Assembly: GCF_037042905.1 (NCBI RefSeq)
Contig: NC_087252.1
Span: 2,730,001-2,794,000 of the forward strand
DNA: 64,000 nt
Direction of reading: 5' to 3'
From: Lytechinus pictus
Taxonomy: Eukaryota
The translations under genes and the position numbers were made by a program. Below the pieces are notes generated by a model, which saw only the letters and a list, made by a program, of their open reading frames with translations, was not told the origin of the DNA and searched no databases. Shown piece after piece: positions 14,766 to 52,571 of this stretch (within the stretch, counting starts at the first letter, position 1; the number at the start of each line of letters is the position of its first letter).

Positions 14766-15672
14766 CTGAATCGAATACTTTTCCTTTTTGGTGTATGTAT
14801 AAAACCTTCTAGAATGATTTCGGGTTATCATGGCTATTCAGACGGACCTGAATTTATAGGTACACCTTTTGAGAATTGTTGGGATTTATTATCTCATCAT
14901 AGCAACTTATAAACAAACCCCCACGAAGGATACATCCTACTCATCCACAATACCGAATAGGTCACCATTCATAATTTGGGTCATTAACAATAGGTGGTCT
15001 GTATGATCATGAATGACAGAGACCAAAGTGAAGTCCAATAAGCCAGTTAACGGTTCGCTCATGATCATTCTCAAATGACCTTTGTGATTTTTCATTAGGA
15101 TAAGCACTATCATTTTCAAATGTAGATGTTGCGTATAAGCTTTACCGGTAGAGTATTCAAATTCTAAGAACAAAAGGCATTGTATAGACCAGGTGACTAT
15201 AATAGTACATCAGGGATAAAGTTTGGAAATCTGTTTTATTGTCTGCCTTTGGTACATTTGACTACTGTTTAAGCTACTGTCCAATACCAGTGATTATGAA
15301 GGCTCTATTTATTACTCTTCAGCTTGGATGTGATAAATATTTTGAAAGGAATACATGAATAATCATCAAATCACAAATGCCTATGTCAGTGAATTTGAAA
15401 GCCACCATGGTTGTCTCCAATTTTCTGCTCGTGCGCATTTTACAACCGTGAACAGGCTTATACACTACATTCTGATACAAACAAAATACCCCTTTTTACC
15501 CTTACCTTTAAGACGGCGCACGTAATGTGTGTCACACTGTCATGCAACTTTACCTTTGTTTAATTGTTACGACAGTGTGACGAAAAGACCTTGCATGCAA
15601 TACGGGTGATAATGGGGTCACCATTTGTGCTCATATTTTCATGATTAAACAAAGCAGAGCATTTGTATTTAA

Positions 15673-16282
15673 AGGTCAAGTCCACCTCAGAAAAATGTTG
15701 ATTTGAATCAATAGAGAAAAATCAAACAAGCACAGTGCTAAAAATTTCATCAAAATCGGATGTAAAATAAGAAAGTTGTGACATTTCAAAGTTTCGCTTA
15801 TTTTTAACAAAATAGTTATATGAACGAGCCAGTTACATACAAATGAGAGAGTCGATGATGTCACTCACTCACTATTTCTTTTGTTTTTTTATTGTTTGAA
15901 TTATACAATATTTCAATTTTTACAAATTTGACGATTAGAACCTCCTTGCCTGAAACACAAAATGTTAAAATAATGGAATTCCACGTGTTCAGGGAGGAAT
16001 GAAACTTAATTTCACATGACAATGACGATAAAATAAAAATATTTCATATTTCATATAATGAAATACAAAAGAAATAGTGAGTGAGTGATGTCATCAGTTC
16101 CTCATTTGCATACCGTATACCGACCGAGATGTGCATATAACTGTTTTGTGAAATTAAGCGAAACTTTAAAATGCCATAACTTTCTTATTTTACATCCGAT
16201 TTTGATGAAATTTTCAGTGTTATGCTTGTTGAATTTTTCTCTTTTTATTCAAATCAAGTTTTTGTTGGGGTGGACTTGTCCT
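15673..16282. mobile_element. Kolobok/T2-like MITE, family A copy 1
   Basis: TTAA|AGGTCAAGTCCACC...GGTGGACTTGTCCT|TTAA with ~250-bp imperfect inverted arms; homologous to 49734-50339. Confidence 0.92.
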
Positions 16283-16962
16283 TTAAGCATGGTAATACCC
16301 TATCATAATTGGGGAGATCGTTATCTCTTTCAAAGGGATGCACAGTCATTGGCGCATGGACAAATACATCGATGTATCGATCACTGATTCAGAACGTGGG
16401 TGCATTATATTAACTGATGCAATTCTATGACGTCATCGAAACGGAAGATATGAAAATAATAGAAGTATATTTCAATGTTGTGCAATAAGTGCGAGATACG
16501 ATACCATGCACCCATGGTCCACAAACAAAGAAGATGAAGGGGGTAATTCTAAAACTGCCAACCGTTATAAACCTATACATTGCATCTCCCATGATGTCAG
16601 GTAAGTACAACCATGTTTTCTTCCTAGGTCCATAGTATACATGGTATAACAACTCCCACTTCCCTGGTATAACAAACACAGGTGAGTTTCAACAGGAAAC
16701 AGACCTAACGGTCATCACATTTTAACATGAAGCTTTAAAATACTAATTCACATTATTTCAACCGCAAAACTCACTCTCGACACCAATCGAGACATTCAAC
16801 CCATTAAATAAAAAGGACGACCATACTGCAGAAGAAAGTTTCACCAGTCGAACTCTACTGATTATTATGTTTAAAATGCTGCCCCATGCATTCGATTTTA
16901 TTTCCAGACATTAAACAACACTCCCTCTTTTATCTTTATCAAGAAAAGAGGTTGCTCGTACT

Positions 16963-18742: not shown

Positions 18743-21088
18743 TCCACACTATCTGCCTACCCCTGGAATCTAAAGTGGAGCAATTGTCGCCTCAGCAAAA
18801 TATTGTCATGGAACCTTTGCGATTGATAAAAACAAAAGTGAGAAGATCGGGGGTGGGGTCGGTGGGGTTTAAAGCAAGATAAGGGAAGCAAAAGAAGAAT
18901 ATGAAAACGAATGGAGGCTGTATACTCACATACATAAAGTTAAAAAAAAACTCTAGCACCAGGCATTGTGAACAAAAAATCGTGTCGACTCCCAAGTCAT
19001 GGACGGTCCATGTTAAAAAAAAAATGCCTTTGTAGGAATAGCGCAATATTCCACGGTGGTGAAATTATGCTTGTGAAAATGAATTCCCAGAGTCGACAGG
19101 GAAATACTTGAGATACATATACTCACATACAACTTGATTAGCTGAATTGACTCTGATTAGCACTCCGACAACGTCCAGCTGTGAGTCTGTAAACAGATAT
19201 GAAATGAAAAATCGTATTTTATACCGTATCTCTTAACGAGCGAACAGTTCATAGTCCAAGTGCTCAAAACGTCACCGCAAGTTCATCATGCTCTTTACAG
19301 TACGAAAGGGTGTGTTAACACGGACAATAACAAGACAATGATCAAGTGGAGGTATTGACGATGTGAAACCTAGAAGCCTTAGGTGTGAACTGGAGTGTGA
19401 CACCGAGTAATCTCAATCGCATTTCATTCTTGCAATTTATAATAATAAACATGATTCACCTAATAACCAAAAACATTAATAACAGTGTTGAATTTGCAAT
19501 CGTAAACAAGAATGCAAGGGAAAGACAGAGAGGGTGGGGGCAGAGAAAAGTAGTCTACAGGCACAGACCCTGATTGAAACTTTGATCAACAAGTGGTCTC
19601 CACGCAGAGACTAGCACATATAAAACTTGCTGAGCGAGAGGGTCTCCGGTACACAAGGCATCATAGGCTGCACATTCAGACCCTTAACTCGAGAGAAGGG
19701 TTTGTAGAGCAGACTAGAGAGAGGGGCCCGGGAGGAGAAAGGTAAAGGAAGAAGGGGTGGGAATTTCTACAGGCGTTTGTAGAAAGGTCATATTTAGGGG
19801 CGGCGCCACAAGGGCGACCAACTAAATTATTTTCAAATGGTCAAATAAATCATATGGGAAGGGACAAAGGAAAACATTGGAAACGACATGCATTAAACGT
19901 TAGAAATTCTTCACCATCCCACAATCATGATAACTGAGAATGATTGGCGTTAATCTTGTCTCCCCTCCCGAAATAATACCCTGGCACCGCCAGTGGTGTT
20001 ATTCCGCATGTTAGAATGTATGTACGCGATTTCAGACGCACTCAAAATAAGCAATGGGCAGGTTATTGTAATAAAATCAGTAACATGGTAAGTAAATTTT
20101 TGGCCTCTCGGTATTTCGCACCTTATTAAAATCCGTCTTGCCAAATTTAGAAGGAATTTTTTTTTATCATTTAGCATTTTGTACTAACATCATTATCATT
20201 AAGCCAAACCCACACATTTTCACGGCAGGTGTATATAGAAATTATCCCGAATTTATCGAAATAAAGGTAAATGAGCTATATTGAACAGAAGTCGAAAGAA
20301 AACGCGAAGAAGACTTGGTAAAGGTTGTGTATAAAGAGAAGTACATGACTTGTTTGTTCCTTTTTTGGGGGTAAATATTAGGTGGATATGAAGGGTAAAT
20401 ATTTACACACTGTTCGACATTTACGCAGTATTTGCGCAACGACGCTACTCTCATTTTCTTATCCTAGGAGTTGGGTCTCTTTCAAAAGTAAAGAAGAACC
20501 CATGGCCTTGGTGGTAACTTCACATGCTTTCAGTTTCTGATTTTAATAAATTGATATAAATAACATGATAAACATCCATAATATCATTGCTCCTTAAGTA
20601 GGCCTACATGTTAATTTAATATGTATAATTTAATTGCGGAGAAAGCCTAAAGAACCTGCAAATAATATAATCCCGTGCCAAGGTACAATTATTAGCTTCT
20701 TGCTCCAATCATAAACGTTTCAATACTAAATGTGATGTTTTTATTGTCTTTGGGAATAACAAGTCTCCTTTGACCTATATACGAATCCATTCGATACATA
20801 GGCCTTTGATCTCTTTCTTATTGTCAAGTATATACCATGTTTTAGGATTAATTACCTCATACTACAGTTTCGATGTGGTATAAGTTTCAGGTTTTATCAA
20901 AAGAGAACGACTTCAAGTTCAATGTACGTATAGATCTTGAGATGATTTGTTACCATTATTCTTATCTCGTATCAAACACGACAATGAGAGGCCAGTCACC
21001 TACTCCAGACGGAGATGAAACAGGGCAACATAAAATGGATACAGATTGATGCATAAAGTTTATTATGCAAAGGTGGAATTACTACATA

Positions 21089-21315
21089 CACTGCAAAAAC
21101 ACCGGCGTTGGTTTAACACCAGCCCGGTATCTATATCGGTCCACACCAGAGAAGCGTTGAAACAACACCAGTTAATAATCAAACCGATATTGGTTTAACA
21201 CTAATTGGCGTTGGTGTTAGCCTAACACCAAACCGGTGTTGTTTCAACACTTCCCTGGTGTGGACCGATATATATAAGGGGCTGGTGTTAAATTAACACC
21301 GGCGTTTTTGAAGAG
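21089..21315. mobile_element. CACTG-ended MITE, family C copy 1
   Basis: CACTGCAAAAACACCGGCGTT...AACACCGGCGTTTTTGAAGAG, ~80-bp inverted arms with AACACC subrepeats. Confidence 0.88.
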
Positions 21316-22020
21316 TAGATAATTAAGTAATCAAAGCGATTGCAAAATCCTCTCAAATCATTGAAAACTGAAACTACTCGACGACAACAACAAGCTCTAA
21401 AAAATTAACGAAATGTTCGAAGCAAACATGCCGTATAAATATCACATGACCATGGACAGGTACAAAACACGCCTTTCGAAACCAGATAGTGAAGTAATGA
21501 ACAAAAATTAATGATGAACTAACTAAGAGTTTATCGCCCTGATCGTGTAAATCTTTCGCTCACAATCAAAGTGAATATAGGCAGATACCATTTAGCACTG
21601 TATAGAAATGCTGTGTTAGTAGCACCTGTCGGTGTTGTAGAAGGACCACACCTTATGGTATAAAAATGCTCCATGAAAATTAAATATAACACCAAATGGT
21701 GTCGGAATAACAGAGAAAATAACACCGAGAGTGTTAAACCAGTTTATCACCGCTAATTCCATGATTCAATTTTCACAGTGATGATTATGCAGACTTTAAC
21801 ACCGCCCCCATCTGTTCACAAGAACAGATAACGTTATTGTTCTGCAAAAAAATAACCATCCTCTTTAGCTAATGGTTTTACGCTGCACACATAACGAAAT
21901 GAAAAGGTTTTTTTTCTTTTGAGAATAGCCGAATAAATGCCCTAAGCAATTTGAGGACACGGTTCCTTTTTACATATTAATGAAAACACAAGTAAAATAA
22001 ACGATGTAATTAAGGCATAT

Positions 22021-22391
22021 GGTTTATTTCCAATTCGTCCAATTGCCAACTCGTCTACTATCATTTGGTCTACAATCAGTTCGCTCACTATCCACATGGT
22101 CTAATTGCCTATTCGTCCACTCACCATTTCGTCTAATAATCAGTTGGTCAAAGAGCCATTTAGTAATACCATTTGGTCTAATTGGACTAAGTGTTAATTG
22201 TGCAAAAAGAATGAAATTGAAAATGGATACCAGACCAACTGGTTATGAGACAAAATGGTCATAGACGAAATGGTGATTAGATGAAGTGATGATTGGACCA
22301 AATTGTTGTTAGATGAAATGTTGATGGACGGACAGGCATTAGACTAAATGAAAGTATACCATGTGGTGAGTGGACGAGTAGGCAATTCACC
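22021..22391. mobile_element. GGT...ACC MITE with ~15-bp TCGTC/TGGTC subrepeats, family D copy 1
   Basis: First half carries periodic TTCGTCYA/TTGGTCYA, second half TRGACGAA/TRGACCAA; homologous to 35653-36063 and 42788-43195. Confidence 0.85.
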
Positions 22392-23890: not shown

Positions 23891-24813
23891 ACAAAATTGA
23901 ATAAAGAGAAACATTGAATGATAAAAATAAGAAGAATAAACTATATAAACAATCAGCAAGGATACCCTGTTTCGTTATATGTAACACCTAGTCATTTATT
24001 GTTTTAGGAAGAGAGCGATCATCCCATATCAGACAGGGGCAGTGGAGGGGGTGACTAATCTCTTTAATTTTCTTTTTAATCGTAGTTAGTAGACAAAAGA
24101 AAAGATTAAATAAGATGATTCGTTTCAAAATAGGGTCCATACATTGCCCCCATTAATATAATTGAGAAAAGTAATGAGGTCACATTCGGGTCGTCTTACC
24201 CCCTCTACGGCTCTGCCAAAACAACAAGGCTCCGCCTCTACTTTTAGAAAAGAAAACCCTCCGAGAACAAACCAAAGTATGCTACCGAAATGCAGACATA
24301 GACCATGTAGACTGTTTTAGCTGCATGCTCTAGGAATCAATTATTAACATTTAATCCGATTACAATCTAATTCCGACCGCCAAGAGCGTCAATACACTGG
24401 ACTTTATTCTATATTTTATCAGGATTTACTTTCATGCTTACAAATATTTCTCGAAGAGAATATTTGTATGCATGCCGTGCAGCGCTTTGTGATCTATTCT
24501 TATTAGGTGCTTTGATATGCCGGTGGATATGAACTGAAAATCAATTCAATATATTCATTTATTACGGGTCTTCTTCCAATTTGCCCATAGACTCGCACTT
24601 TTTTCACAAAAGAAGGCTCGAAGGTGGTATCAACATTTCACAAACTAAATCACAAAGTTTGAAAGAAAAAAATTACAATGGAGATGGGTAAGTCCCTAGC
24701 ATTCACCGAAGGAACCCTGCTGAAAAAAAATATTCAATCTCATTTTCGTAGTCTCGATTCAACGTGCGAGATAAAAAATAATATTCTTTGTATCATCCAC
24801 AAACTGAGATTAA

Positions 24814-25061
24814 AGGAAAAAATCACCATGGCGATAAGTTGGGGTTTTTTTGCATCTAAAAGCAGAAAACTAGAGAAAACATTGTTGAAGGTTTGATGAA
24901 AATCCATTAAAGATTTATGTAGGAGCTGTCTCGTCTGTGATGTCATAAAAAAAACTGTAAAAATTCTCAACTCCGTTATTCTTTCATCAAACTTTCACCC
25001 ACATTTTCTCTGTTTGTCTGCTTTCATTATAACCAACTTATCATCAGGGAGAAATTCCCCT
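24814..25061. mobile_element. Short degenerate Kolobok/T2-like MITE
   Basis: TTAA|AGG...CCT|TTAA with inverted GATAAGTTGG / CCAACTTATC and TTTGATGAAA / TTTCATCAAA. Confidence 0.7.
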
Positions 25062-26824
25062 TTAAGTCCATGGAAAGGGAAACCCTAAATTAAAAAAACG
25101 GGAGGAATTCTGGGCTCTAATCGGAATTCGTCTTCAATATTGGAAACATCTTCCTGCCCATGCTAGACCCCACACCAAAACCTAATCAATTCTAGGGAGT
25201 TGGGAGGTTTCATCCTTGGTTATTAATTTCAACTCGTGTTACAACCACGGAGAGCCACGTTACATGCCTTTATACTGATTAAATTACATTACTCCTAAAC
25301 ATGCCAAGAGGAATTCCTTTCTAAAGATTCTCCTGATGCAATTCATGTGACGGATATAATAACCAAATGTAATACTTCGGTGAAAACTGTGATAAACCAT
25401 GGGGAGACATTAATTTTAAAAATTTTCATTTCCATTATTGAAGAAACCTAGTTCTTTTGTGTCAGGTTTTCTTCATCAAGATCAGCGAATGTCTCATGAT
25501 ATAACCCAAGAGGGCGTGTAAGCGAATCATTAATCAGTTAATGGGATGAAACCAGGCGATCTGAAAAGAATCAATTTCATCCAAACTTGGCAATGCTTGG
25601 TGGCGGGGGCAGATTTGAATAAAAAAAAAAACCCGGAAGCATTATGACATGAAGGATACTGTATAACTTCTATCCATTTGAGCTTTCTTCATTTACTAGG
25701 TGGACATCTGTTTCCTTTCAAAGCTGACTCCAGGAGAAAATTAAGGAATCATGTTATGTCACGAATATCAAAATAGATTAAAACATGCCTCATTAAAATG
25801 TGTTTTAAACAATGATCACTGGCAGCAGTTTATGCAATCAAATTCGTCATTCTATATGTCTGAAAGATCATCAGATCATCTCCTCTCACATATACAGATA
25901 TTTTGGGATTTGATATTAGTGGCCCTTTGAAATGAAGAAGTGTATAGCATCGTATTAATTTTATAATTTATGTCCGCATTGTTTTCAATTTAATGATAAT
26001 ATACTGGACATGTAATGAACGTCCGAATAGACTTTTTATTCTAGCTTGTTTAGGTGCATCCATGACTTGTATACCTTTCCTGAAATAATCATAATCATGA
26101 TAAGATTCTTATATTAACAAACAAAACGAAATTGAGGCGGGGGGGGGGGGGAGGGCACTGCCATGCTGGACATACAAATGAAACACGGGTATGACGGGTA
26201 TGTTACCCAATATGTTCAAAAGAACCACGATTCTCTCTCTCATTTCCAACACGTGTCGATCGGATGCATATACACAGGGTCATCTATCTCTGCTCTCTGC
26301 TTCAGCGACTTCCCCCAAATAGTCTAGGAGATGGGGGGCTTTATTCAGAATTTTTGGTGGGCAAGGTTTGACAGACTTATCCTGGGTAAAATTGTGTGCT
26401 GATTCCAAAAATGTCAGTCTTATTGAGCGTACTCACGACATTTTAGCCATTTTGGCCAATTATTGACCAAAAATGACAAATTTGACCACATTTTGGCCAA
26501 TTATTGACCAAAAATGACCAATTTGACCACTCTTTGGAAAATGGTCCCTTAACAGAATGCTGTTGTAACCACATCCAATTAAAAGGGTCTTTCCTAAGCA
26601 AAAATGCACCCAGATTCCAAATAAAGTGGTTTCATTTTCCAAATCACACTAGAAGTGGTCATTTTGGCCATGTTTTGACCAAAAATGACAATTTTCATGA
26701 TTTTTATGTCCGAAATGTGTTACAAACATTGATCAGTACAAAGATTGGATGTCTTTAGTAATCCACAATTATTTTTAAAATGTGCGCTGGATCATAACAA
26801 TCAACCTCATATAATTTATTCTGT

Positions 26825-28380
26825 CAGTTTTGACCTATGACGGTCATTTTGGGTACTTCAGACATAAACTGACCATTCGCGTAGTTATGCATTATAAACT
26901 GTGCAAATCGACAGGAATTTGAGGTCTTCAGCATGTATCTTCTTAATGGGATTGCATTTAAAGGTCTATCCTGTGTAGAATTTTATGCTGATTCCAAATA
27001 TATCAGTCTTGATGACCCTTTTCAAAAGCTTATGGTCATTTTGGTCATTTATGTCCCTCAAAATGACCAATAATACAAGTTAAATTTATCCAAAAATACT
27101 TCGAATGTTTCCAGAATCGTTACAAGGGTGTGCTGTGACACCTAACATTGATGTATTAATCCTTAAATTGAACATCTCAAATTTATTTTGACCTCATGTA
27201 ACTTATTCCAGCAGTTTTGACCTATGAAGGTCATTTTTGGTACTTTAGACATAACTGACCATTCGCGCAATTCTGCATAATAAACTGTGCAAATCGACAG
27301 GAATTTGAGGTCTTCAGCATGTATCCTCTAAATGGGATTGCATTTAAAGGTCTATCCTGTGTAGAATTTTATGCTGATTCCAAATATATCACTCTTAATG
27401 ACCCTATTCAAAAGATTATGGTCATTTTGGCCACTTATGGCCCTCAAAATGACCAATAACATCAGTTCAATTTATTAAAATATATGTCGAATGTTACCAG
27501 AATCGTTACAAGGGTGTGCTGTGACACCAAGCATTGGTTTATTATATCTTTAAATTGAACATCATGAGAGCATTTTGACCTCATGTAACTTATTCCAACA
27601 GTTTTGACCTATGAGGGCCATTTTGGGCACTTTAGACATAACTGACCAGTAGCGCGGTTTTACATTCATGTACTGTGCAAATACGTAAGAACTTAAGGTC
27701 TCCAGCGTGTTTTATCTTCTTCCCTTATAAAATGAAAATGCATTCAAAGATCCATTTTGTGTAGAATTTTATGCTGATTCCAAATGTATCACTGTAAATG
27801 ACCCTATTTAACAGCTTATGGTGATTTTGGCCACTTATGGTCCTCAAAATGACCAATAACATCAGTTTAATTTATCCAAAAAAACTTCGAATGTTACCAG
27901 AATCGTTACAAGGGTGTGCTGTGACACCAAATATTGGTGTATTATTTCTTTAAATTGAACATCTCAAAAGCTGAGTATTTTGACCTCATGTAACTTATCC
28001 CATCAGTTTTGAACTATGAGGGTCATTTTGAGGATTTTAGACATTACTGACCATTCGCGCAGTTTTGCATAATAAACTGTTCAAATAGGCAGGAATTTGA
28101 GGTCTTTAGTGTGAAATATTTTCTTCCCTTATAATATGGGAATGCATTTAAGGTCTATCTTGTGTAGAATTTTATGGTTATTAAAAATAAACCAGTCTTA
28201 TTGACCGTATTTAAAATCTTTTGGTTATTTTGGCTTCTTTTTGGCCCCAAAATGACTAATAACATAATTTATCCAATAATACTTCGAATGTTACCAGAAT
28301 CATTACAAGGGTGTGCTGTGACACATAACACTGGTGTATGAACCCTTGAAATTGAGCATCCCCAAAGTATTTTTACCACC
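26825..28380 (+). repeat. Four ~390-bp tandem units in the foldback left arm
   Basis: CAGTTTTGA(C/A)CTATGA recurs at 26825, 27212, 27599 and 28004. Confidence 0.92.
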
Positions 28381-29489
28381 TTGGTCATTTTGTCCACCTT
28401 GACCCCGGGCTTGACCCCTGCCCAATGTGTATGTTAATTCACCCTATAGCGAACATGATGAGGATAGATTCAGGATTGCGTTTATATTAGCATCAGTTAT
28501 TGTTAAATGGGGAAAGTTTGAAAGCTTTTGGGTGAAAATCAATACAATGATTTCATATAGTCCAGTGTTATTGGCCTAACTATTGGACCCTGTGGTCCTT
28601 TTGACCACTTTGTACTCGGTGACCACTCATACTTTGATGAAAAAAAATGCTTAAATGTTGGTCAGTGTCATTATCAGCATGAACTACCAATAATCGGTGA
28701 AGAGTGTTGATAAATGTGATGAAATCCTTTACATCGAGTATACATAAGGTTGTTTGACCACGCACTGTGGTTATTTACTATAAGTAATGTTATATTGAAA
28801 TCAATAAGTGTTTTGTCACTTATTATGATTGATTATAATACATCTTATTATCAATAAAGAGCGACAACAACATTTGAATCCGATTTGATACATTCAAATG
28901 TTATGGGTCATTGTTGGGACCAAAAGTGACCAAAATGAGCACTAGCTCATAAAGGAATTAATCTACTTCATAAAGTTTAGAAATATGTCCTAACATTGAA
29001 TTATGCTAAAATGTCTCATTCCTAAATTTGCCTCCCTATATATGTGAAGTTTCCATTTATAGCTACATTGTGGTCAAGGTGGCTAAAATCATGAAAATGA
29101 CCACAGTGCATGGTCAAACAATCTTATGTATACTCGATGTAAAGGATTTCATCACATTTATCAACACTCTTCACCGATTATAAGTAGTTCATGCTGATAA
29201 TGACACTGACCAACATTAAAGCATTTTTTTTATCATCAAGCAATAGTGGTCACTGGTCATTGAGGAAAAAGTGGTCAAAAAGACCACAGGGTCCAATAGT
29301 TAGGCCAATAACACTGGACTATATGAAATCATTGTATTGATTTTCACCCAAAAGCTTTCAAACTTTCCCCATTTAACAATAACTGATGCTAATATAAACG
29401 CAATCCTGAATCTATCCTCATCATGTTCGCTATAGGGTGAATTAACATACACATTGGGCAGGGGTCAAGCCCGGGGTCAAGGTGGACAC

Positions 29490-30369
29490 AAGGCGGTGCT
29501 GCACCATCCCGAGTTTGCTCAATCTCGAGATTTTAGCCCGATCGGCCCACTTCGCGATTAATCTCGAGATTCAAGAAACCCCGTCTGCACCATCGCAAGA
29601 AGAGCATTCCTGCTCGAGCGAGGCAACAAGCCCGATATTACGAGCATGCGCACTTTCGGATCTTGGAGTTTCAACGGCCCGCGCTTTTGAATAACTTCCC
29701 GCGATATGCAAGCAATGTACTCCTTTCACTAGCACTTTCGCCGAATTCAACCGGTGTTATGCAACAATCCTCTTAGCTCAGCGAGTGAAGAAGTGTATTC
29801 TTCGTTAAATATGATGGCGGAGTAGGAGGCAACGACAGAGAGAGAGAGAGAGGGAGAGAAGGAGGAAAGAAATGCTATTTGCTCACATTTTGCGAAGGAA
29901 TAAGACAACACTGCTGTCAGTGTTGTTATTGAATATGACCATCGTCGATGAGCGCCTCCCCCTTCGGTCTGGTCTCTCCCAAAATCCATTCACTGGTGGG
30001 ACACCATCGTTGCTTATGAACGCTATTCGCATGTACGTATAAAGTTGACTTTCGCACGTGTTTATGTTTTGACCAAGGCGGAAGTGGAACGCGAATTGCA
30101 CTATGGACTGACGTCATGAATAAATTACCCCGAGTCCAATCTCGAGTGCGTCTGCACCGACGAATTAGCGGGATAATTCGTAAAATAGCGCGCTATTTTG
30201 CAAATAAACCCGAGTTGACTTGGGATTGCAATCTCGAGATTAATCCTACGAACTAGCGCGATAATTGCGTCTGCACCGCCAACTATCTCGAGATTTTTCA
30301 GATCGGGATAATTTGCCGGATCAGAAATAGCGCGCTAATTTGAAAACTCGGGATGGTGCAGACGGCCCT
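29490..30369. mobile_element. ~880-bp non-autonomous TIR element (Harbinger-like) inserted in the foldback right arm
   Basis: CTGCACCATCCCGAGTTT...AAACTCGGGATGGTGCAG termini; it splits GGTGGACAAAATGACCAA, which is intact in the left arm. Confidence 0.88.
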
Positions 30370-30384
30370 AAAATGACCAAGGTA

Positions 30385-33089
30385 GTAAAAATACTTTGGG
30401 GATGCTCAATTTCAAGGGTTCATACACCAGTGTTATGTGTCACAGCACACCCTTGTAATGATTCTGGTAACATTCGAAGTATTATTGGATAAATTATGTT
30501 ATTAGTCATTTTGGGGCCAAAAAGAAGCCAAAATAACCAAAAGATTTTAAATACGGTCAATAAGACTGATTTATTTTTAATAACCATAAAATTCTACACA
30601 AGATAGACCTTAAATGCATTCCCATATTATAAGGGAAGAAAACAATACACACTAAAGACCTCAAATCCCTGCCTATTTGAACAGTTTATTATGCAAAACT
30701 GCGCGAATGGTCAGTAATGTCTAAAGTCCTCAAAATGACCCTCATAGTTCAAAACTAATGGGATAAGTTACATGAGGTCAAAATACTCAGCTTTTGAGAT
30801 GTTCAATTTAAAGAAATAATACACCAATATTTGGTGTCACAGCACACCCTTGTAACGATTCTGGTAACATTCGAAGTATTTTTGGATAAATTAAACTGAT
30901 GTTATTTGTCATTTTGAGGACCATAAGTGGCCAAAATCACCATAAGCTGTTAAATAGGGTCATTTACAGTGATACATTTGGAATCAGCATAAAATTCTAC
31001 ACAAAATGGACCTTTGAATGCATTCCCATTTTATGAGGGAAGAAGATAAAACACGCTGGAGACCTTAAGTTCTTACGTATTTGTACAGTACATGAATGTA
31101 AAACCGCGCTACTGGTCAGTTATGTCTAAAGTGCCCAAAATGGCCCTCATAGGTCAAAACTGTTGGAATAAGTTACATGACGTCAAAATACTCTCATGAT
31201 GTTCAATTTAAAGATATAATAAACCAATGCTTGGTGTCACAGCACACCCTTGCAACGATTCTGGTAACATTCGACATATATTTTGATAAATTGAACTGAT
31301 GTTATTGGTCATTTTGAGGGCCATAAGTGGCCAAAATGACCATAATCTTTTGAATAGGGTCATTAAGAGTGATATATTTGGAATCAGCATAAAATTCTAC
31401 ACAGGATAGACCTTTAAATGCAATCCCATTTAGAAGATACATGCTGAAGACCTCAAATTCCTGTCGATTTGCAGTTTATTATGCAGAATTGCGCGAATGG
31501 TCAGTTATGTCTGAAGTATCCAAGATGACCTTCATAGGTCAAAACCGATGGAATAAGTTACATGAGGTCAAAATAATTTTGAGATCTTCAATTTAAGGAT
31601 TAATACACCAATGTTAACCCTAATTCTCCCGGGGGGGGGCCATAATGGCCCCCCCCCTCGACAATTTTCGCGATATATCCGCTGCGCAAAAAATTTTGAC
31701 CTCGACGCTCACTGACTTTTTACTTTCAAGTCTCGCGCAAATTTTGAGACCAAGTTTGTGATGCCCGGGTACGCGGTTACGACATTACGCAACATTATGT
31801 AAGTGCATGTCAAACCCAAAATTGCTCATAAACGTGATTTCATGTACAAATCCAATGCAAATTGTGTATTTAGCCAAAATTCATAAATGTATCATTATTT
31901 CTACTTTTACTGATTGAATTTAATTGATTTTGCCTTGCATATGATCAGAATTAAGTCTGGAACAATTTCCATTGAAAAAACAATAAAAAACAAAAAAGTA
32001 AAAAAACAAGGAAATACATAAGAAATTCATAAAACAATAAAATACATAAGAAATTGATTTCCAAACCGAAGTTTTTTTTAATTGCGATTGTTAAGAATGC
32101 TACAAAGAATATTTTTACCAAAAATTAGCATTCTAGGAGCTTTATTTAGTGAATTAGAGCAAAAAATATGATTTATGCATAAATTAGCATAATTAATTCA
32201 TATAAAATAAAATCTCATTATTTTGGAAAATTTTACCATACAGCCTTGTAGATTACATCGCACACTACCAGCGTGCAAATTTTTGCGTCGCTCGAGCGAT
32301 CGGCGGCCGAGATCTTAAGGGGGGGCCATAATGGCCCCCCCCGGGAATGACAAGAATCAAAATACCCCGGGAGATTGAGGGTTAAGTGTCACAGCACACC
32401 CTTGTAAAGATTCTGGAAACATTCGAAGAATTTTTGGATAAATTTAACTTGTATTATTGGTCATTTTGAGGGACATAAATGACCAAAATGACCACAAGCT
32501 TTTAAATAGGGTCATTGAGACTGATATATTTGGAATCAGCATAAAATTCTACACAGGATAGATCTTTAAATGCAATCCCATTTAGAGGATACATGCTGAA
32601 GACCTCAAATTCCTGTCGATTTGTACAGTTTATTATGCAGAATTGCGCGAATGGTCAGTTATGTCTAAAGTACCAAAAATGACCTTCATAGGTCAAAACT
32701 GATGGAATAAGTAACATGAGGTCAAAATAGATTTGAGATGTTCAATTTAAGGATTAATACATCAATGTTAGGTGTCACAGCACACCCTTGGAACGATTCT
32801 GGAAAAATTTCGAAGTATTTTTGGATAAATTTAACTTGTATTATTGGTCATTTTGAGGGACATAAATGACCAAAATGACCATAAGCTTTTGAAAAGGGTA
32901 ATCAAGACTGATATATTTGGAATCAGCATAAAATTCTACACAGGATAGACCTTTAAATGCAATCCCATTAAGAAGGTACATGCTGAAGACCTCAAATTCC
33001 TGTCGATTTGCACAGTTTATAATGCATAACTGCGCGAATGGTCAGTTTATGTCTGAAGTACCCAAAATGACCGTCATAGGTCAAAACTG
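30385..33089 (-). repeat. Five ~390-bp tandem units in the foldback right arm (one interrupted)
   Basis: TCATAG(G/T)TCAAAAC at ~30742, 31147, 31532, 32686 and 33074. Confidence 0.9.
31618..32381. mobile_element. Non-autonomous piggyBac-like element
   Basis: TTAA|CCCTAATTCTCCCGGGG...CCCCGGGAGATTGAGGG|TTAA; subterminal GGGGGGCCATAATGGCCCCCC palindromes at both ends. Confidence 0.93.
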
Positions 33090-35652
33090 ACAGAATAAAT
33101 TATATGAGGTTGATTGTTATGATCCAGCGCACATTTTAAAAATAATTGTGGATTACTAAAGACATCCAATCTTTGTTCTGATCAATGTTTGTAACACATT
33201 TCGGACAAAAAAATCATGAAAATTGTCATTTTTGGTCAAAACATGGCCAAAATGACCACTTCTAGTGTGATTTGGAAAATGAAACCACTTTATTTGGAAT
33301 CTGGGTGCATTTTTGCTTAGGAAAGACCCTTTTAATAGGATGTGGTTACAAAAGCATTCTGTTAAGGGACCATTTTCCAAAGAGTGGTCAAATTGGTCAT
33401 TTTTGGTCAATAATTGGCCAAAATGGCTAAAATGTCGTGAGTACGCTCAATAAGACTGACATTTTTGGAATCAGCACACAATTTTACCCAGGATAAGTCT
33501 GTCAAACCTTCCCCACCAAAAATTCTGAATAAAGCCCCCCATCTCCTAGACTACATTCATCTGTCTCTATCATCATGAATGTTCACATTGCCTACAAATT
33601 TATGAAGAGTATAACATTTGAGAGATGCTTCGGTTGTGCGTTTGAACTTAAACTGAGAAAACTGCAACTTGATCATATTTAATATTCACCCACTTTACCT
33701 TTTTATCCTGCAAATTTAAATTTATATCACAAAAAGTGCAGTCTAACCTCACTGAGGGTGTATGCTACTATGACACGATAGGGAGCACTGGCACAATCAT
33801 GACAATGTAGGGGGGGGGGGCAACCTAAAGATGAAGTCATATTTTCTTATCTGTTCTCATTTGAATAATGGTGATAAGAGTTAAACGACCCAGGTCTCTC
33901 TCTTAATTTGATACTTGAATCTCTTCCTTTTCTTCTTCGATACTTACCCCCCCCCCTTATTTTTCAATGCTTGAAGATCATCGAGGAGGGGGTGTCATCC
34001 CTGCCCCCTGTATCACTACCATCCCCCCTGAACTGGTAGACGGTAAGGAGCAATCCCTAATATAGGACAGCGACCTCATAAATATATATACGTGTTATAA
34101 TATCCTGCTAGTATTGTTTCATACATGATGTATGACCTATATTTCATGCATGATTTAGCGAGAAATCTAGAGGGTTCGAGGGGTCTTATTTCGAATACTG
34201 GAATAACACGAATATGCTAGAGTAGAAAAATAAAACAATCACGAGCTATAATACTGATATAAATTATTGCGATTTGAAAATCAAATACTTATCGCGGTTG
34301 TTGTAGTGCCGGAATAAAACACATGCACTTGAAAAAAAATCTGATGTATTGTTGCGTCAATATTTCGGAAGTAAAGTCAGATTTAATATCAACCCAAGTC
34401 CTAAATTGGCTCGATAAAACTGTTCAAGTTGATGGAAGGGCAAAATGATTGTTTCAGAAAGGAGAATTTCAAAGATATGTTCCCTAAGTCATTTTTATTT
34501 TTGGTGTACGACACTTGATTGGCAAAAATTGAACTATTGAAGACCGTGTTCATAAAGGGAAAGACGAGTCATTTTATCATGGTTATTGGTTTGTGAGAAA
34601 CATATTTTCCAAGCCCTCGTTGACTTGAAATTCCGACCTCTTATTAAGTGTATTCTATAAAATGGGGATTTGCGCATCCCCCCCTCTCCGCAAGAAAAAA
34701 AAAATTCCAGACTAAATCGTCAAAAAATCTTAAATCCATGCTCATGGACCCTATTAAATCAAATACTATCACCTCCATGCATAGTCATCCCCCTCCCCAA
34801 CAACATTCGCGTTACCCCATCCTACTGTCAGCCGTTCTATGCCTCCCATATAAAGCCCGAGGCAAGCATATTAGGGTGAACTGAATATGGAAGAAAAATA
34901 CATTATGTTTCAGTTAATTCAATAAGCTTCAAGTTTAGGTACTAGGATGAAGGAAAATCTGAGTGGGTGTAATGTCTCATGTGTCATTCCCCTGGGGCAA
35001 CTGAAAAATGTGGACCAGATTTATTTGAAGAAAAAAAAAGATATAGAATGTGGTAATGTCTTACTTTTTATAAATAGCTAGCTAGCAAATAAATGGGCGT
35101 GACTGTTGCCCCTTCAAAAATCTTGTGTTGACTGAAATTATGCTGAAGTTATTCTCTGTATTTTCAGAGTACTGTTTAATGTGTAGGACTGAATTGTACA
35201 TGTATTACAGATTTTATGGACTTCAGCTACTTGATGGTATATAGACTAAAACAACTTTCATTTTTCTTTTTTCTTAAAGCAAATTTCCAACCACACCACA
35301 CATGGAGAGTTTTGTATCAATTTGGTCTACTATCAGGTGGTCTAATTCGCAGATTGTGTAACACAGCAATGACTATTGGCTATAACCACTTGGCCTACTA
35401 TCATTTTGTTCTAATTACCGTTTGGTTCAACCATAGCTCTATCGTTTAACAGTCAATTGGTGTAATAATCACTTGGTCCACCCCTTATCTTGCACTTTCT
35501 CAAATTAAAATGTGCTCATAGTTCATGAGCTGGACAACGTGGATATGACATGTAATTGGTGGGCGTATATATAAGGCCTATATTCTAAACAGAAATTAGA
35601 TAAAAAATGGTAATGAGCTAAATGGCAAATAGACCAAATTAGTAGTACACGA

Positions 35653-36063
35653 GGTGTATTTTCATTTGGTCCAATGTCAATTCGTCCAACTGCCAACTCG
35701 TCTACTATCATTTGGTCTACCATCAGTTCGTCCAATATCCATATGGTCTAATTGCCATTTCGTCCACTCACTATTTCGTCTAATAAACAGTTGGTCCAAT
35801 TGCCATTTAGTTCATCCATATACCAATTGGTCTAATTAGATTAGGTGTTAATTGGGCAAATTCAATGATAATAAAACGAATATTGGACCAACTGCTTATG
35901 AGACGAAATGGTCATTGACGAACTAGTGATTAAATGAAGTGATGAATGATTGGACCAAATTGTTATTGGACCGAATGTTGATTGACAGAATGGCATTAGA
36001 CTAAATGAAGGTAGACCATGTGGTGAGTGGGCGAGCTGGCAGTTGACGAATTGGCAATTTACC
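35653..36063. mobile_element. Family D MITE copy 2, within an older degenerate relative (~35310-36150)
   Basis: Shares TGCCAACTCGTCTACTATCATTTGGTCTA and ACCATGTGGTGAGTGG with the 22021 copy. Confidence 0.85.
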
Positions 36064-42787: not shown

Positions 42788-43195
42788 GGTTTATTTCCAA
42801 TTAGTCTAATGCCAATTCGTCTAATTACCAACTCGTCTATTATCATTTGGTCTATCACCGATTCGTCCACCATCCAAATGGTCTAGTTGCAAATTCGTCC
42901 ACTCACCATTTCGTCTAATGACCAGTTGGTCCAATAGCCACTAATTTTAGTCCATAAACCATTTGGTCTAATTTGATAAGTGTTAATTGGGCGAAATGAA
43001 TGAAAAGAAAATAGGTATTAGACCAACTGGTTATTAGACGAAATGATTATAGACGAACTGGTGATAAGACGAAGTGATTATTGGACCAAATGGTTGTTAG
43101 ACGAATTGTTGATCGACGGAATGGCATTAGACTAAATACAGGTAGACTATGTGGTGAGTGGACGTGTTGGCAGTAGACGAATTGGCCATTTTACT
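42788..43195. mobile_element. Family D MITE copy 3
   Basis: Starts GGTTTATTTCCAATT like the 22021 copy and is colinear with it. Confidence 0.85.
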
Positions 43196-45350: not shown

Positions 45351-46482
45351 TATACAGATAGCGAATAGGCATGAGTGCGATGGTGCGAGATTTTGCATGA
45401 GGTGAAAGAAAGATGCTCTATTCAACGAGGCGTGAGCCGAGTTGAATAGAGCGTCTCTTTCTTTCACCGAATGCAAAATCTCGCACCATTGCACGAATAA
45501 GAATATTCGCTATTTGTGTTGTACAACGCCTCGGAATTTAGCGAAAATATGAAAAAACAAAGTTTATCCCTATAGTAATCTATTAAAAGGGAGCTAAAAT
45601 ACCGAAAGCCGAAAGCAAAATCCCACAAGCGCACATGACATTGGGCAGCCTTGCGCATTTAGCCAGCTGGCTTATACGCGTATTGTTCATTTTTACCGAG
45701 CGCAATGAATTAAATCGTATTGTGACGTCACCTCCTAAAGCCGTGCAACGGTACATTTTGGACGGTACATTTTGGATGGTACGTCTTTTGTGCAACGGTA
45801 CGAATGTTTGACATTCAGCATCCCATTTGCTCGCGTACAACAAGCTAAGTAGGCGTTGTACAAATATACAAATAGCGAATAGGCATGAGTGCGATGGTGC
45901 GAGATTTTGCATGAGGTGAAAGAAAGATGCTCTATATTCAACGAGGCGTTAGCCGAGTTGAATAGAGCGTCTCTTTCTTTCACCGAATGCAAAATCTCGC
46001 ACCATTGCACGAATAAGAATATTCGCTATTTGTGTTGTACAACGCCTCGGAAGTTAGCGAAAATATGAAAAAACAAGAGTTTTTCCCTGCAGTAATCTAT
46101 GAAAAGGGAGCAAAAAAATTGAAAGCGAAAAGCAAAATCCCACAAGCGCACACGACCTTGGGCAGCAATGCGCATTGAGCCAGCAGGCTTGTACGCGTAT
46201 TGCACCTTATTTTACTGAGCGCAATGAATTAAATCGTATTGTGACGTCACCTCCCAAAGCCGTGCAACGGTACATTTTGGACGGTACATTTTGGATGGTA
46301 CGTCTTGTGTGCAACGGTACGAATGTTTGACATTCAGCCTCCCATTTGCTCGCGTACAACAAGCTAAGCAGGCGTTGTACAATACATTTTTGATGGTACG
46401 TCTTTTGTGCAACGGAACGAATGTTTGACAGTCAGCCTCCCATTTGCTCGCGTACAACAAGCTAAGTAGGCGTTGTACAATA
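45351..46482. mobile_element. Head-to-tail dimer (plus partial 3' duplication) of a ~515-bp element with split inverted repeats; Crypton/DIRS-like non-autonomous element
   Basis: Units start at 45351 and 45865. Each opens with a ~165-bp hairpin centred on CGAGGCGT(G/T)AGCCGAG and closes with AGGCGTTGTACAA; the last ~100 bp are repeated at 46385-46482. The repeat is certain, the superfamily is inferred. Confidence 0.75.
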
Positions 46483-46678
46483 CTAAATAACGAAGAAGTG
46501 TGACAAGGCAACTTTGATAACATGGAAGTAAATCATGATACAGCCAGCGGCGGTTATGAATCAACGGATTCTATGCTATTTCCACGAGATTCTCCTTTTC
46601 GAATAAAAATACAAGTAGTTTGCAGAGCGTCAGACTGTCGACAAATAACTTAATTAAGACATACCCTCAGTAGAAGTA

Positions 46679-46861
46679 CACTGCAAAAACACCGGTGTTG
46701 AAACAGCACCACTTCGGCTTTAAGCTAACACCATTTAAACACTCATCAGTGTTAGACCAATATCGGTTTGAATATTAACTGGTGTTGTTTCAACACTTCC
46801 CCGGTGAGTTCCAATAAGGATACCGGTCTGGTGTTAAATTGACACCGGTGTTTTTGCAGCG
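46679..46861. mobile_element. Family C MITE copy 2 (internally deleted)
   Basis: CACTGCAAAAACACCGGTGT...ACACCGGTGTTTTTGCAGCG. Confidence 0.85.
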
Positions 46862-47740
46862 GATCTACTCGTTCTTCATCTTTCTGTCTGTCCGTCCGTC
46901 TGTTCCAATTTTACGAACATCTTCCGTGAGCATGTCCATTATGCTAAAAGTGTAGTCACACCAACGAAACCGACTCCAGACCGATCAAAGCTATTGCATA
47001 AGTGAGCTAACGACACGTTAACCCTTCTCGATCACCCGAACCTATTTTCATTATCTCCTAGATTCTTAGGGTTTTTATTACTTGCCATGCAACATACACC
47101 TTGCTTGTTTGATCTCGGAATAAGACGTTAATGGTGGCAAGAAAGATATACTCACTATCTGCATTCGGGACATGGTACAAGCAATTAGAAAAATAGGGAG
47201 AGGGAAGAACGAGCGAGAAAAATTTCCCATTTAAACATGTTAAAAGGCCGCTCATTTTATTCCACCGTTACTTCTCTCCTCCCAATTTGATCTCCTATCG
47301 GAAACAAAAAAAGAGCGAAATTTCTTGTCCGTTTGGAATGGTAACATGATTGCGCATAGATGTATTAAATTTGAAACTAGCTATCAAAACGAAGTGATAT
47401 GTGTATTTGATTCTCTAAAAAAAAAAAAAATCTGCGCGTTCCGTAGCATATTCAATTAGATTTTACAATGGTATTTGAGTAGCAAATTAAAATGAAACAA
47501 GTAGCGATAGTATACGACGCAGACGGAATTGAAAGCGGATGTGGCGATGTAGGCATGGTAGAAGTATTAAGGAATATTAATTGGACGACAGATGACTGAC
47601 GTCATGCAATAAACGACAGGTAACGGATTTCTTATGAGACGACTAACAGCAGTCAACGGACGATGGAAGATAAAGGACAGGCAATGGAAGTCAAACCAGA
47701 CGATAGACGCCATACGACATACAGATACGACAGACATCAT

Positions 47741-47982
47741 CACTGCAAAAACTCCGGTGTTGATTTAACACCAGCCCGGAATCTATATATGTCCACACCA
47801 GAGAAGTATTGAAACAACACCAGTTTGGAATCAAACCGATGCTGTTTTAATACTAATTGGTGTTGTATAAACTCCTATCTGGTGTTAGACCAAAACGAAA
47901 GTGGTGTTGTTTAACACTTCTCTGGTGTGGACATATATAGATTCCGGGCTGGTGTTAAATCAACACCAGAGTTTTTGCAGTG
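47741..47982. mobile_element. Family C MITE copy 3
   Basis: CACTGCAAAAACTC...GAGTTTTTGCAGTG, ~80-bp near-perfect arms. Confidence 0.92.
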
Positions 47983-48073
47983 TACGACCTGACAAGACGA
48001 CTGACGCCACGCACAGGGACGGCATAAAATTATCTACCCATTCGGGCCGGATGAGCTAAAGATATCTCCTTAA

Positions 48074-48655
48074 AGGGATGGTCCGGGCTGAAGATATTTA
48101 TATTCTGATACATAGAGTAGAATTCACTGAGCAAAATGCCGAAAATTTCATCAAAATCGGATAACAAATAACAAAGTTATTGAATTTTAAAGTTTAGCAA
48201 TATTTTGTGAAAACAGTCGTCATGAATATTCATTAGGTGGGCTGATGATGTCACATCTCCACTTGCTCTTTTGTATTTTGTTAAATAAAATTAGGTTTAT
48301 TCAAATTTTTTCCTCCAAGAACTAGAAAAATTGGATAGACAACTGACTTAGTGCATTAGATATTTATTGCTGCAACTTATTTCATTATAAGGGAGACATA
48401 TTATTCACACAAGTATGAAATAATGAAAAAATTATGATTTTATGTAATAACATAAGAAAACGGAAAGTGGAGATGTGACATCATCAGCCCACCTCATGAA
48501 TATTCATGACGACTGCTTTCACAAAATATTGCTTAACTTTAAACTTCAATAACTTTATTATTTGTTATCCGATTTCGATGAAATTTTCGGCATTTTGCTC
48601 AGTGAATTCTACTCTATTTATTAAGCTATAAATATTTTCAGCCTGGAACATCCCT
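48074..48655. mobile_element. Kolobok/T2-like MITE, family B
   Basis: TTAA|AGGGATGGTCCGGGCTGAA...TTCAGCCTGGAACATCCCT|TTAA, ~190-bp inverted arms. Confidence 0.93.
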
Positions 48656-49267
48656 TTAACCATTTTAACTTCGTAGATCTTAATCAATCTTCTCCGTAAT
48701 CAGATCATTTTTGTTGCAAATGAATACTTTAATGTCAAGGGGATAATATTGACAGTTAGGGACTAACAAATATCAATTTACCTTTGTAAGTGCAGTGTCT
48801 ATTTTGGCCCCTTCTTCTCCATTAGAATGCACACTCGAGGGATAATCATCAAATAAGGGGATCACAATTGGACAAGTCAACATTCAGAGCTGTAACATAA
48901 AATGAAATAAAAAAAAGTGTACCATGATATTATGCCTATTCTACCATCATGCATTGACCATTTACTGATATAGACGTGTCGGAGGTATCAAATTATTGCA
49001 CCTCACCACTCTTCATGTTTTTATTCATAGCAAATTACTTGAGCGATAAAAAGATAGTCAGCACGTCATACTGCGAGGAGAAGAGGGACGAGATAAGAAA
49101 CATGCCATATGGATCACAAAGTAGGGGGGTGTGTTTTGTGGGAGTGGCCAATGTGCACAGAAGGCACTAAGCTTTAAAGTTGTTCATATATAGTAACGAA
49201 TGTTCCCCCAATCATGACGTAGGCCTACCTAGGATGCATCACTAATCTATGTTCTCAGAACCATGAC

Positions 49268-49452: not shown

Positions 49453-49733
49453 AACGATAGCGAGAACCGATACTACTTCGTTCGATATTATATCATGGAT
49501 ACCATCAACATGGAGTGCGGAAGAGCCCTACATGAGTATAAAGGGATGATGAGATAACTATTATTTTGTTTCATTGCTCACAGTTCCATCGTCAGGACGT
49601 GTCCCCATGTGCTTTAATTATGTTCATACTTCAAGCACATTCAGAGTGACATAACTTTCCAATTGCTCAATTTTCAACTAGAAGAAATTTGCCCATAATG
49701 CGTATCAACAAGCAATTCCAGGATCTTGTTTAA

Positions 49734-50339
49734 AGGTCAATTCCACCCCATACAAATGCTGATTTGAATGAATAGAGAAAAATCAAACTAGCACAATGCT
49801 GAAAATTTCATAAAAATCGGATGTAAAATAAGAAAGTTGTGACATTAGTTCTGCTTATTTTTCACAAAACAGTGATATGCACAACTCAGTGACATGCAAA
49901 TGAAACAGACGATGATGTCTACAATTCATTATTTCTTGTGTTTTTTCTTGTTTGAATTATACAATATTTCATTTTTTTACAGATTTCACAATAAGGACCA
50001 ACTTGACTTAACCATATAGTATCAAACAATGCTAATTCCACATGTTCAGGGAGGAATTGACCGTTGTTTTACTTGACGATGGGGAGAAAATTAGAATTTT
50101 TCATATTTCATATAATAAAATACACAATAAATAGTGAGTGGATGATGTCATTAGTAGCCTCATTTGCATACCGACCAGGATGTGCATAAATTATAACTGT
50201 TTTGTGAAATTAAGCGAAAATTTAAAATGCCATAACTTTCTTATTTTTACATCCGATTTCGATGAAATTTTCAGTGTTATGCTTGTTGGATTTTTCTCTT
50301 TTTATTCAAATCAACTTTTTGTTGGGGTGGACTTGTCCT
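49734..50339. mobile_element. Kolobok/T2-like MITE, family A copy 2
   Basis: TTAA|AGGTCAATTCCACCCCA...TGGGGTGGACTTGTCCT|TTAA; colinear with 15673-16282. Confidence 0.92.
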
Positions 50340-52116
50340 TTAACAATGCTCATTCGTAATTGTGTGTTCTAACAGATCAGGAAAGAATGACTCGATTGTA
50401 CTCGATTGAAAAATGATTAATTCTGAAAGGGAGATTCATTCAAATCTTTAACTGGAGATGCACTTTTGAAATAGAGAGGGAGAGCTTTATCATTTCTGAT
50501 CAACATGGACAGGTTTCTTGGCTAACTTAGGACGTGAACCTGAGGGACTAAAAATGATGTCATGTCTCCGCTTAGCCATTACCCTGATCAGACGCGGTTT
50601 CTCGCCCCGTTTATTCTGATTCTTCTACTTTCCCCCATCACGCATATGAACTGAGATGGGGAATATTTACGATATCCTCAATTGACAGCCATTTATCAGA
50701 GTCCTGCTTGGCTACCTCATCAAGCAAAGCGAAGTAAACATCATGGAGAACTGTTTTGCTCATTGGCTAATATTCGCCGTCCGTGGCAGGCAAGTCTTCT
50801 CGAAAATTACGGTTCAGGTCTGGGTTTGGGACCGATCTTATTAGTATTATTATTTTTTTTTTCATTTTTAGGTCAGACTCGGTCATGTAAAAGATGAAGC
50901 AACAGTTGATATCGACGTCATTAATGTGCATTAGGTGGGCTGATGATGTCATATCACCACTTGTTCTTTTGTATTTTACTATATGAAATTAGGTTTATTA
51001 AAAAATGTTCTGCCAAGAACAAAAGCAGTTGGATTGACAACTGATTAAGTGCATAAGTTCTTTATTGCTGCAAATTATTTCATCATAATAGAAACACATC
51101 ATTTAAAATTTATGAAAAAATGAAATAACATAAGAAAAAGGAAAGTGGGGCCCGATGCGACATCATTACCTCATAAAGACATGCCTATAACGGTTTCATC
51201 TGAATGATGCAAATCTTTAAATTCAATAACTTCATTATTTATTTTTACAAAGAACGATGTGCAAATTTCCTGTTGAACAATTATGACATTGATGGACTTC
51301 CATATATTTGAGGTTGATCGGATCAACCGTAACTCCATGTAATACGTGGCCCTGGTATGGTCAACATCAGCTAGTTGGTAGAATAAAAATACATACCAAA
51401 AGAAAAAAAATAAAACAAGCGCAACACTGAAAGGTTCATAAAAAACTCACAAAGTACTAGTATTAAGTGTGTATAGGCATAGCAAGAAAATAGCAATCTC
51501 ATTAGTTTCTAATTCCCCGCAGGACACTTTTAATTGGTATTTGGAAGGTCTTCTTGGCAATCAAACAACCTCGTCAATATTTTGAATGTTAGCAAACAAC
51601 CTTTTTTTCCTTTCTTTGGCAAATAATCACTCGAAAATATCTCAAGGAGTAGTGTAGATCTGGACGTTAGTACTTATTAATTTAGTTCAGAAACCCTTCA
51701 CTAACATGAACATGATGAAGGGAAGTGAAAAGACGGTGTGTGTATACTGTGTGGAATGGATATGTAAAGTTTTCCAAACAAATAACTACTAACGCCCAGC
51801 TCTAGAGTACTGAAGTAGCTCTGAAGTAAATTAATTATCTTCAGACTTTACTGTAGATGGTGATGAAAATGATAACAATAATTACATACAATTGTTGAAG
51901 TAGAGATAATGATGTATGTTTCATTATAGTATGGCGATCCTTAATTTCTGAAGATGATGAGGAGGGGGGGGGGGACCAAGAGCCTTATAAGTCATGCAAC
52001 ATTCTGCAGGTTCGCCACTCTTCTCTAACAGTTTACTCGGGACTGTCAGAGTTTCCTCAGTGTATATACTTGAATGAATCAACTCTTTCCATTTAGCTGT
52101 AAGTTTGCCAGAGTCC

Positions 52117-52490: not shown

Positions 52491-52571
52491 TACGCTGTGC
52501 ATACTGGTAATCTGCATGAACTACGGTGATAATATTCGACTTCTGGAAGTTTTACTAGCTTACCTGTAGCT

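Follow-up and report, generated by a model that had tools for sequence, protein, structure and literature searches.

The 64,000-nucleotide stretch of the Lytechinus pictus genome analyzed here (NCBI RefSeq assembly GCF_037042905.1, contig NC_087252.1, positions 2,730,001 to 2,794,000 of the forward strand; hereafter the window, numbered from its first letter) carries a long element made of two inverted arms around a spacer. A sequence-only reading of this DNA had described a 7.2-kb foldback that lacks open reading frames (ORFs). The outer limits given there, 26320 and 33553, were confirmed by our analysis: over their first 128 bp the arms show 99.2% complementarity, and the sequences on either side of the element are not related to each other. 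Self-BLASTN of the window detected three inverted blocks (26320–27527/33553–32386, 27143–28391/31616–30370 and 28388–28776/29491–29095) of 1209, 1249 and 397 bp, with 93.6–97.5% identity, indicating that the inverted structure did not arise by chance.

Structure of the element

The left arm measures 2457 bp (26320–28776) and the right arm 4459 bp (29095–33553); without two nested insertions, the right arm is reduced to 2809 bp, the left arm stays at 2457 bp, and the element comprises ~5.58 kb. The arm-to-arm comparison that the earlier reading had proposed gave 2369 identical positions in 2415 aligned columns (98.1%), with 46 substitutions. Identity amounts to 438 of 443 columns in the terminal modules, 1546 of 1574 in the units and 385 of 398 in the inner modules, and the longest stretch that is perfect between the arms is 207 bp. 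The innermost 159 columns of the inner modules are only 93.7% identical, compared with 98–99% elsewhere in the arms. As is typical of the foldback class, these long, 98.1% identical arms account for most of the element and enclose a short spacer, predicted earlier at ~320 bp and found to be 318 bp. Each arm is organized as a terminal module, a tandem array (four units on the left, five on the right) and an inner module, which is the layout of modular foldbacks; the anatomy proposed for the left arm was reproduced, with a ~480-bp terminal module, 4.0 copies of a 386-bp period and a ~400-bp inner module.

The middle of the element is non-coding, as in other foldbacks, and no ORF of at least 100 codons was found anywhere within it (the longest has 96). 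None of the nine element frames of at least 72 amino acids matched Pfam, in agreement with the earlier statement that a transposase ORF is lacking, and an Rfam search of the element returned no match. A Pfam search of 94 window frames (at least 72 amino acids, starting before position 57000) found no transposase. The structure is a real foldback-type DNA element, non-autonomous, fairly young yet already decaying.

The picture of a clean mirror image, with scattered substitutions and a few indels as the sole differences between the arms, did not survive closer analysis. Two MITEs, or miniature transposable elements with inverted repeats, are nested in the right arm, which also has a fifth unit, and the left arm contains a private 41-bp tandem duplication (26448–26488). 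Two arms of 2457 bp plus the spacer would add up to 5.2 kb and not to 7.2 kb; the missing 2.0 kb corresponds to the MITEs and the fifth unit minus the 41-bp duplication. The description of a "giant" 7.2-kb element is overstated, 1.65 kb of the span being nested MITEs. An assembly fold-back, named with the earlier reading as a possible refutation, could be invoked because no more than 0.17 of the words sampled from 24500–34499 are present in the best public run. A folded read, however, would copy one arm almost exactly; here 46 substitutions, the 41-bp duplication, a difference of one unit and two nested elements separate the arms, and one of these elements has an exact TTAA duplication. These differences exclude an assembly artefact, to which we assign a negligible probability.

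Table 1 Parts of the foldback element and their positions in the window
Feature	Position	Strand	Remarks
TA, target-site duplication or first two bases of the TAG end	26320..26321	.	From the boundary scan
Left terminal (flanking) module	26320..26803	+	~480 bp; contains two degenerate partial unit copies; carries the 41-bp duplication
Left tandem array	26804..28377	+	4.0 copies, period 386 bp; units 385–405 bp, 80–90% alike
Left inner module	28378..28776	+	~400 bp; a distant unit copy
Spacer, 318 bp, non-coding	28777..29094	-	Degenerate unit at 28869–28953, in right-arm orientation
Right inner module	29095..29488	-	385/398 columns identical to left inner module
Nested MITE 1, ~880 bp	29489..30369	.	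No counterpart in left arm
Right array, inner part: R5, R4, R3, end of R2	30370..31617	-	R3 pairs with L2, R4 with L3, R5 with L4
Nested MITE 2, 764 bp	31618..32381	.	CCC…GGG ends, TTAA on both sides
Right array, outer part: remainder of R2, then R1	32386..33110	-	R1 pairs with L1; R2 without full left-arm partner
Right terminal module, CTA end	33111..33553	-	438/443 columns identical to left; TA 33552–33553 mirrors 26320–26321

Nested MITE 1 has a perfect 18-bp inverted repeat (29499–29516/30344–30361), its outermost bases are imperfect, and no clear target duplication was found at its edges. The CCC ends of nested MITE 2 are part of a piggyBac-type signature. This insertion is flanked by TTAA at 31614–31617 and 32382–32385, and 19 of the 21 bases at its ends are complementary, TTAA included. 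The uninterrupted TTAA site is visible in the left arm with one base different. The same 24-bp near-palindrome lies just inside both ends of nested MITE 2 (31633–31656 and 32319–32342). A TTAA duplication together with short inverted ends identifies nested MITE 2 as a piggyBac-type MITE, TTAA being given as the piggyBac target duplication in PMC5199201.

Common origin of the modules

A profile constructed from the nine units matched the terminal module at 26316–26507 (E 2e-19) and 26583–26702 (E 3e-6), the left inner module at 28547–28761 (E 2e-4) and the minus strand of the spacer at 28869–28953 (E 6e-10), and its best match elsewhere in the window had an E value of 6.6. In pairwise alignments, the terminal-unit, terminal-inner and unit-spacer scores were reached by none of 500 shuffles, and the inner-unit scores by 1 and 3 of 500. 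The inner module was not significantly similar to the plus strand of the spacer, where 50 of 500 shuffles reached the score. Judged by these alignments, the terminal module, the inner module and the spacer are degenerate copies of the ~390-bp unit.

These parts also share a motif. TGACC or its complement GGTCA occurs 5 times in the terminal module, 8 times in the unit, 7 times in the inner module and 3 times in the spacer (one copy of each being counted), with shuffle means of 0.4–1.1; these counts were reached in 5, 0, 0 and 6 of 1000 shuffles, respectively. Two 9-mers built on TGACC/GGTCA are found 24 times in the element, repeated units included, and not at all in the remaining 56.8 kb of the window. 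Drosophila FB and sea urchin TU elements are likewise known for inverted arms of modular build in which short motifs recur. For Galileo and Tetris, such motifs have been proposed as extra transposase-binding sites (PMC4079207). By analogy, the TGACC/GGTCA pairs probably offer additional places where a transposase acting in trans could bind, and the long inverted repeats probably grew via tandem amplification of one subterminal module carrying the paired motifs.

The unit-derived spacer bears on a different explanation, in which the foldback arose in place through a local rearrangement, either by inverted duplication of a single arm belonging to a family member or by a recombination event involving two copies, and the element never moved as a whole. 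Such an origin is consistent with a spacer that is one further unit in right-arm orientation and no separate middle domain. The higher divergence of the innermost 159 bp of the arms is easier to reconcile with an inverted repeat that was already old in a donor element than with a single recent duplication. Overall, we regard a local rearrangement as improbable.

Unit number and history of the arrays

Comparison of the units across the arms gave these pairs: L1-R1 (97.9% identity), L2-R3 (97.7%), L3-R4 (98.0%) and L4-R5 (98.2%), with units at non-equivalent positions only 80–94% alike. The right unit R2 lacks a full partner in the left arm and is 93.8% identical to L1 and 90.7% to L2. Over the first 150 (5′) unit columns, 1 of 136 positions separates L2 from R2, and 5 of 134 separate it from R3. 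Over the 3′ part of the unit the relation is reversed, with 4 of 209 differences to R3 and 34 of 208 to R2. A 5′ match to R2 combined with a 3′ match to R3 indicates that L2 consists of the start of R2 joined to the end of R3. In the 3′ part, R2 and R1 differ at 17 of 208 columns, far above the arm divergence (p=7e-7), which means that the fifth unit is older than the split of the arms and that R2 is no recent duplicate. We therefore rejected a recent unit duplication in the right arm in favor of a loss from the left arm.

The simplest reading of these sequences is that each arm had five units at insertion, in an element of ~5.9 kb, and that the left arm then lost one period. In this history, the copy that inserted at the locus was ~5.9 kb long and had five units in either arm; later, one 387-bp period disappeared from the left arm when units 2 and 3 recombined or slipped, with a crossover that maps between unit columns ~114 and ~192. 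After insertion, the left arm also gained its 41-bp duplication, two MITEs entered the right arm, and the arms drifted to 1.9% divergence. The sequences show the nested insertions and the unit ancestry directly; transposition as one unit and the timing of the events are inferred. The arm homogenization suggested earlier finds no support as an ongoing process, in view of the persistence of four structural events and 46 substitutions.

Ends of the element

Fourteen symmetric end positions were scanned for target duplications of 2–12 bp. No perfect duplication of 3–12 bp was found at these 14 boundaries; the only perfect ones were 2-bp TA duplications, for ends at 26322/33551 or at 26327/33546. 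The termini can consequently be read in two ways, as TAG…CTA without a duplication or as GTC…GAC at 26322–33551 flanked by TA. A boundary one base further inward would give a 4-bp duplication with one mismatch, which is possible but not favored.

In the first reading, the element was mobilized by an Academ transposase, and the target duplication was lost or never made. TAG…CTA termini are a signature of Academ transposons. The Academ-type ends of the earlier reading are one option of two, as the TA could be the target duplication. PMC10045372 reports duplications of 3–4 bp for AcademX and of 9–10 bp for AcademH. Neither is present here (AAA versus CAT and CAAA versus CATT at the flanks), and, as the arms are only 1.9% apart, an Academ duplication should have remained visible. 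We give mobilization by Academ close to an even chance. A local rearrangement would explain the missing 3–4-bp duplication if the ends are of the Academ type, and it agrees with the lack of any duplication beyond TA; a perfect TA duplication under the alternative boundary argues against it.

In the second reading, the element extends from 26322 to 33551 and was moved by a TA-targeting transposase, of the Tc1/mariner type or of another 2-bp family. It accounts for the perfect TA on both sides (26320–26321 and 33552–33553) and requires no lost duplication. A first base G is unusual for Tc1/mariner ends, and our literature search turned up no earlier case in which modular arms of several kb go with a TA duplication. 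The second boundary, 26327/33546, also yields TA, which illustrates the weakness of a 2-bp test. TA is described as the Tc1/mariner target duplication in PMC5199201. We consider mobilization of this kind only slightly less probable than mobilization by Academ. This single copy is compatible with both Academ and a TA-duplicating family as its superfamily.

Several other assignments were rejected. An 8–10-bp duplication of the Mutator type (Tetris, Muta1) with at most one mismatch was absent from all 14 boundaries. The 7–8-bp duplication of P elements and Galileo was not found either, the lone 7-bp near-match being the palindromic arm tip itself. Polinton and Spy-type boundaries do not fit the flanks.

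Copies of the ends in public sequencing runs

Contig sets of 4 of 24 public runs were aligned on positions 24000–27200, which include the left flank, the left end and the first unit; three runs represent organism A and the fourth (X7) organism C. No RNA run is recorded among the 24 listed. In the three organism A runs, summed contig depth, which is no copy number, was 0–104 over the flank bins 25177–26246 and 11,054–57,970 over bins 26247–26781. The jump falls in the bin that contains the left end at 26320, demonstrating that the ends belong to a high-copy family. Interspersed multi-copy occurrence is thus seen for the left terminal module and the first unit, in the three organism A runs. Joints that skip 50–244 bases within the terminal module were present among the aligned contigs, indicating that internal-deletion derivatives exist. 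In record 4 of X1 (2208 bp) and record 12 of X2 (4875 bp), a ~85% identical terminal module lies at the contig end. Because depth in X2 is zero on the flank 25177–26032, record 12 runs on into DNA other than this left flank. In organism C, the flank was not covered and depth on the element was 0.7–49. The high-depth ends and the deletion derivatives support the earlier view of a non-autonomous foldback from a repeated family; a second two-armed copy was not seen among the contig matches listed.

Single positions give information on exchange between the arms. At 26737 and 26882, the right arm agrees with the aligned contigs and the letter of the left arm is private. At 26768/33146 and 26503/33411, both arms share a letter that is absent from the contigs listed (26768 and twin site 26462). 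Letters common to both arms suit a single template, as a local rearrangement would provide, and are explained equally well by a subfamily or species variant. Such a pattern is what past conversion or a variant of the subfamily could produce, and it speaks against full homogenization now.

The proposal that the element seeds satellite DNA was unsupported: depth over the unit bins ranges from about equal to a few times that of the terminal bins and shows no sign of a large array, contig depth being weak evidence on this point. In exact scans, a terminal 18-mer was found in none of the metagenome contigs and none of the viral contigs. A unit 17-mer (32 metagenome loci) and a terminal 17-mer (6 prokaryotic loci) gave 38 exact matches, which were dismissed as chance, the longest alignment being 28 bp. 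Within the left flank, 24856–25069 is a short high-copy repeat with a first-bin depth of 8,000–32,000 in three runs and opposite-strand joints; it is probably another MITE.

Other features of the window

A segment is duplicated in tandem at 50550–57627/56986–64000, with a ~6.4-kb period and 98.7% identity between the copies. The first copy contains a 369-codon frame (52533–53642) for a rhodopsin-family G protein-coupled receptor (7tm_1, E 7e-30) and the second a matching 364-codon frame (58925–60019), each with a 102-bp tandem repeat just upstream. A sub-threshold PUL match to Pfam lies at 24743–24994.

The remaining features are repeats. A ~400-bp repeat with 15–16-bp tandem subrepeats at 42788–43191 has related copies at 22022–22390 and 35653–36060. 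A 10-bp direct repeat at 42778 and 43196, a Mutator-like signature, accompanies the copy at 42788, and a search of the other two detected no direct repeat of this sort at their edges. Palindromic ~600-bp MITEs that start with AGG after TTAA occur at 15668–16289, 49727–50343 and 48070–48659, and we take them to be Kolobok-like. A family of ~240-bp palindromic MITEs with CACT ends is flanked by TA (21087–21317, 47741–47984, 46695–46867 and 56684–56921), so that TA-flanked elements exist in this genome. At 45351–46483, two ~515-bp repeats (93.6%) stand head to tail; their starts are palindromic, and a 98-bp duplication comes after them.

Discussion

The best explanation of the locus, and one that we hold to be probable, is a non-autonomous cut-and-paste foldback DNA transposon that inserted as a five-unit, ~5.9-kb copy and was altered later. 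Several observations weigh against it. The longest target duplication is TA, which is indistinguishable from the tip of the inverted repeat: TA is self-complementary, and a TA duplication always looks like two extra inverted-repeat bases. With the alignment covering 24000–27200, the long flanking part of X2 record 12 may represent the element's own right flank. Identity of the run contigs to the flank is no higher than ~90%, so that they represent another haplotype, maybe another species, and the argument from depth relies on a sum over contigs that does not measure copy number. Among the contig matches listed for 24000–27200, neither an empty site nor a further full-length copy appeared, and the Pfam search of the window yielded no transposase to link to the element ends.

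The element looks and, by analogy, probably works like Tetris and Galileo. Tetris of Drosophila virilis, as described in PMC4079207, lacks ORFs and has flanking, outer and inner domains with ~220-bp units. As here, its units are homologous to part of the flanking domain, their number varies by unequal exchange, and no autonomous partner is reported. It differs in unit length (~220 bp versus 385–405 bp here), in arm length (at most 1.7 kb versus 2.5–2.8 kb here) and in its 8–10-bp duplication, as opposed to TA or none here. Unlike in Tetris, the inner module and the spacer are also unit-derived here, and no satellite expansion was seen here. Galileo copy 112 of Drosophila willistoni, a member of the P superfamily, has 9021 bp, no ORF and arms of 4246 and 4680 bp (PMC4168063). 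It shares the multi-kb arms, the unequal numbers of internal tandem repeats and the nested transposable-element insertions, and differs in its ~140-bp repeats, its 7–8-bp duplication, its known transposase family and its host. Mutator-type foldbacks such as Muta1 (PMC5225508), like FB and TU, resemble the element in the modular build of their inverted arms and in the recurrence of short motifs; subterminal repeats of 9–15 bp (Muta1 and relatives) and duplications of 8–9 bp, neither of which is seen here, set this group apart. Academ elements have TAG…CTA termini, as one reading of the ends gives here, and differ in the 3–4- or 9–10-bp duplication, which is absent here. Since the duplications of Tetris and Galileo are lacking, we assign the element to the foldback structural class only. 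The novelty that the sequence-only reading had seen in its long subrepeats is weak, given the same layout with ~220-bp units in Tetris and the ~140-bp arrays and nested elements of Galileo.

A foldback family derived wholly from one ~390-bp module, from the ends and arrays to the inner domain and the spacer, with an Academ or TA-targeting transposase as its mover in place of the Mutator or P transposases of the foldbacks compared here, is an unlikely combination in our judgment. The literature search, which did not include Repbase, Dfam or the AcademH paper, found no published TA-type or Academ-type foldback, and the family may already be catalogued. If such a family were real, its units would be nearly twice the length of those of Tetris. 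If the partner were an Academ or TA-type transposase, the foldback design would have arisen independently once more, in another superfamily, and the TGACC/GGTCA pairs would be a candidate binding motif for the partner so identified. As it stands, the element belongs to ordinary repeat biology and is a new example of a known foldback design, in which one locus records how foldback arms change: by module amplification, by a mapped loss of a single unit through crossover, and by nested insertions into one arm.

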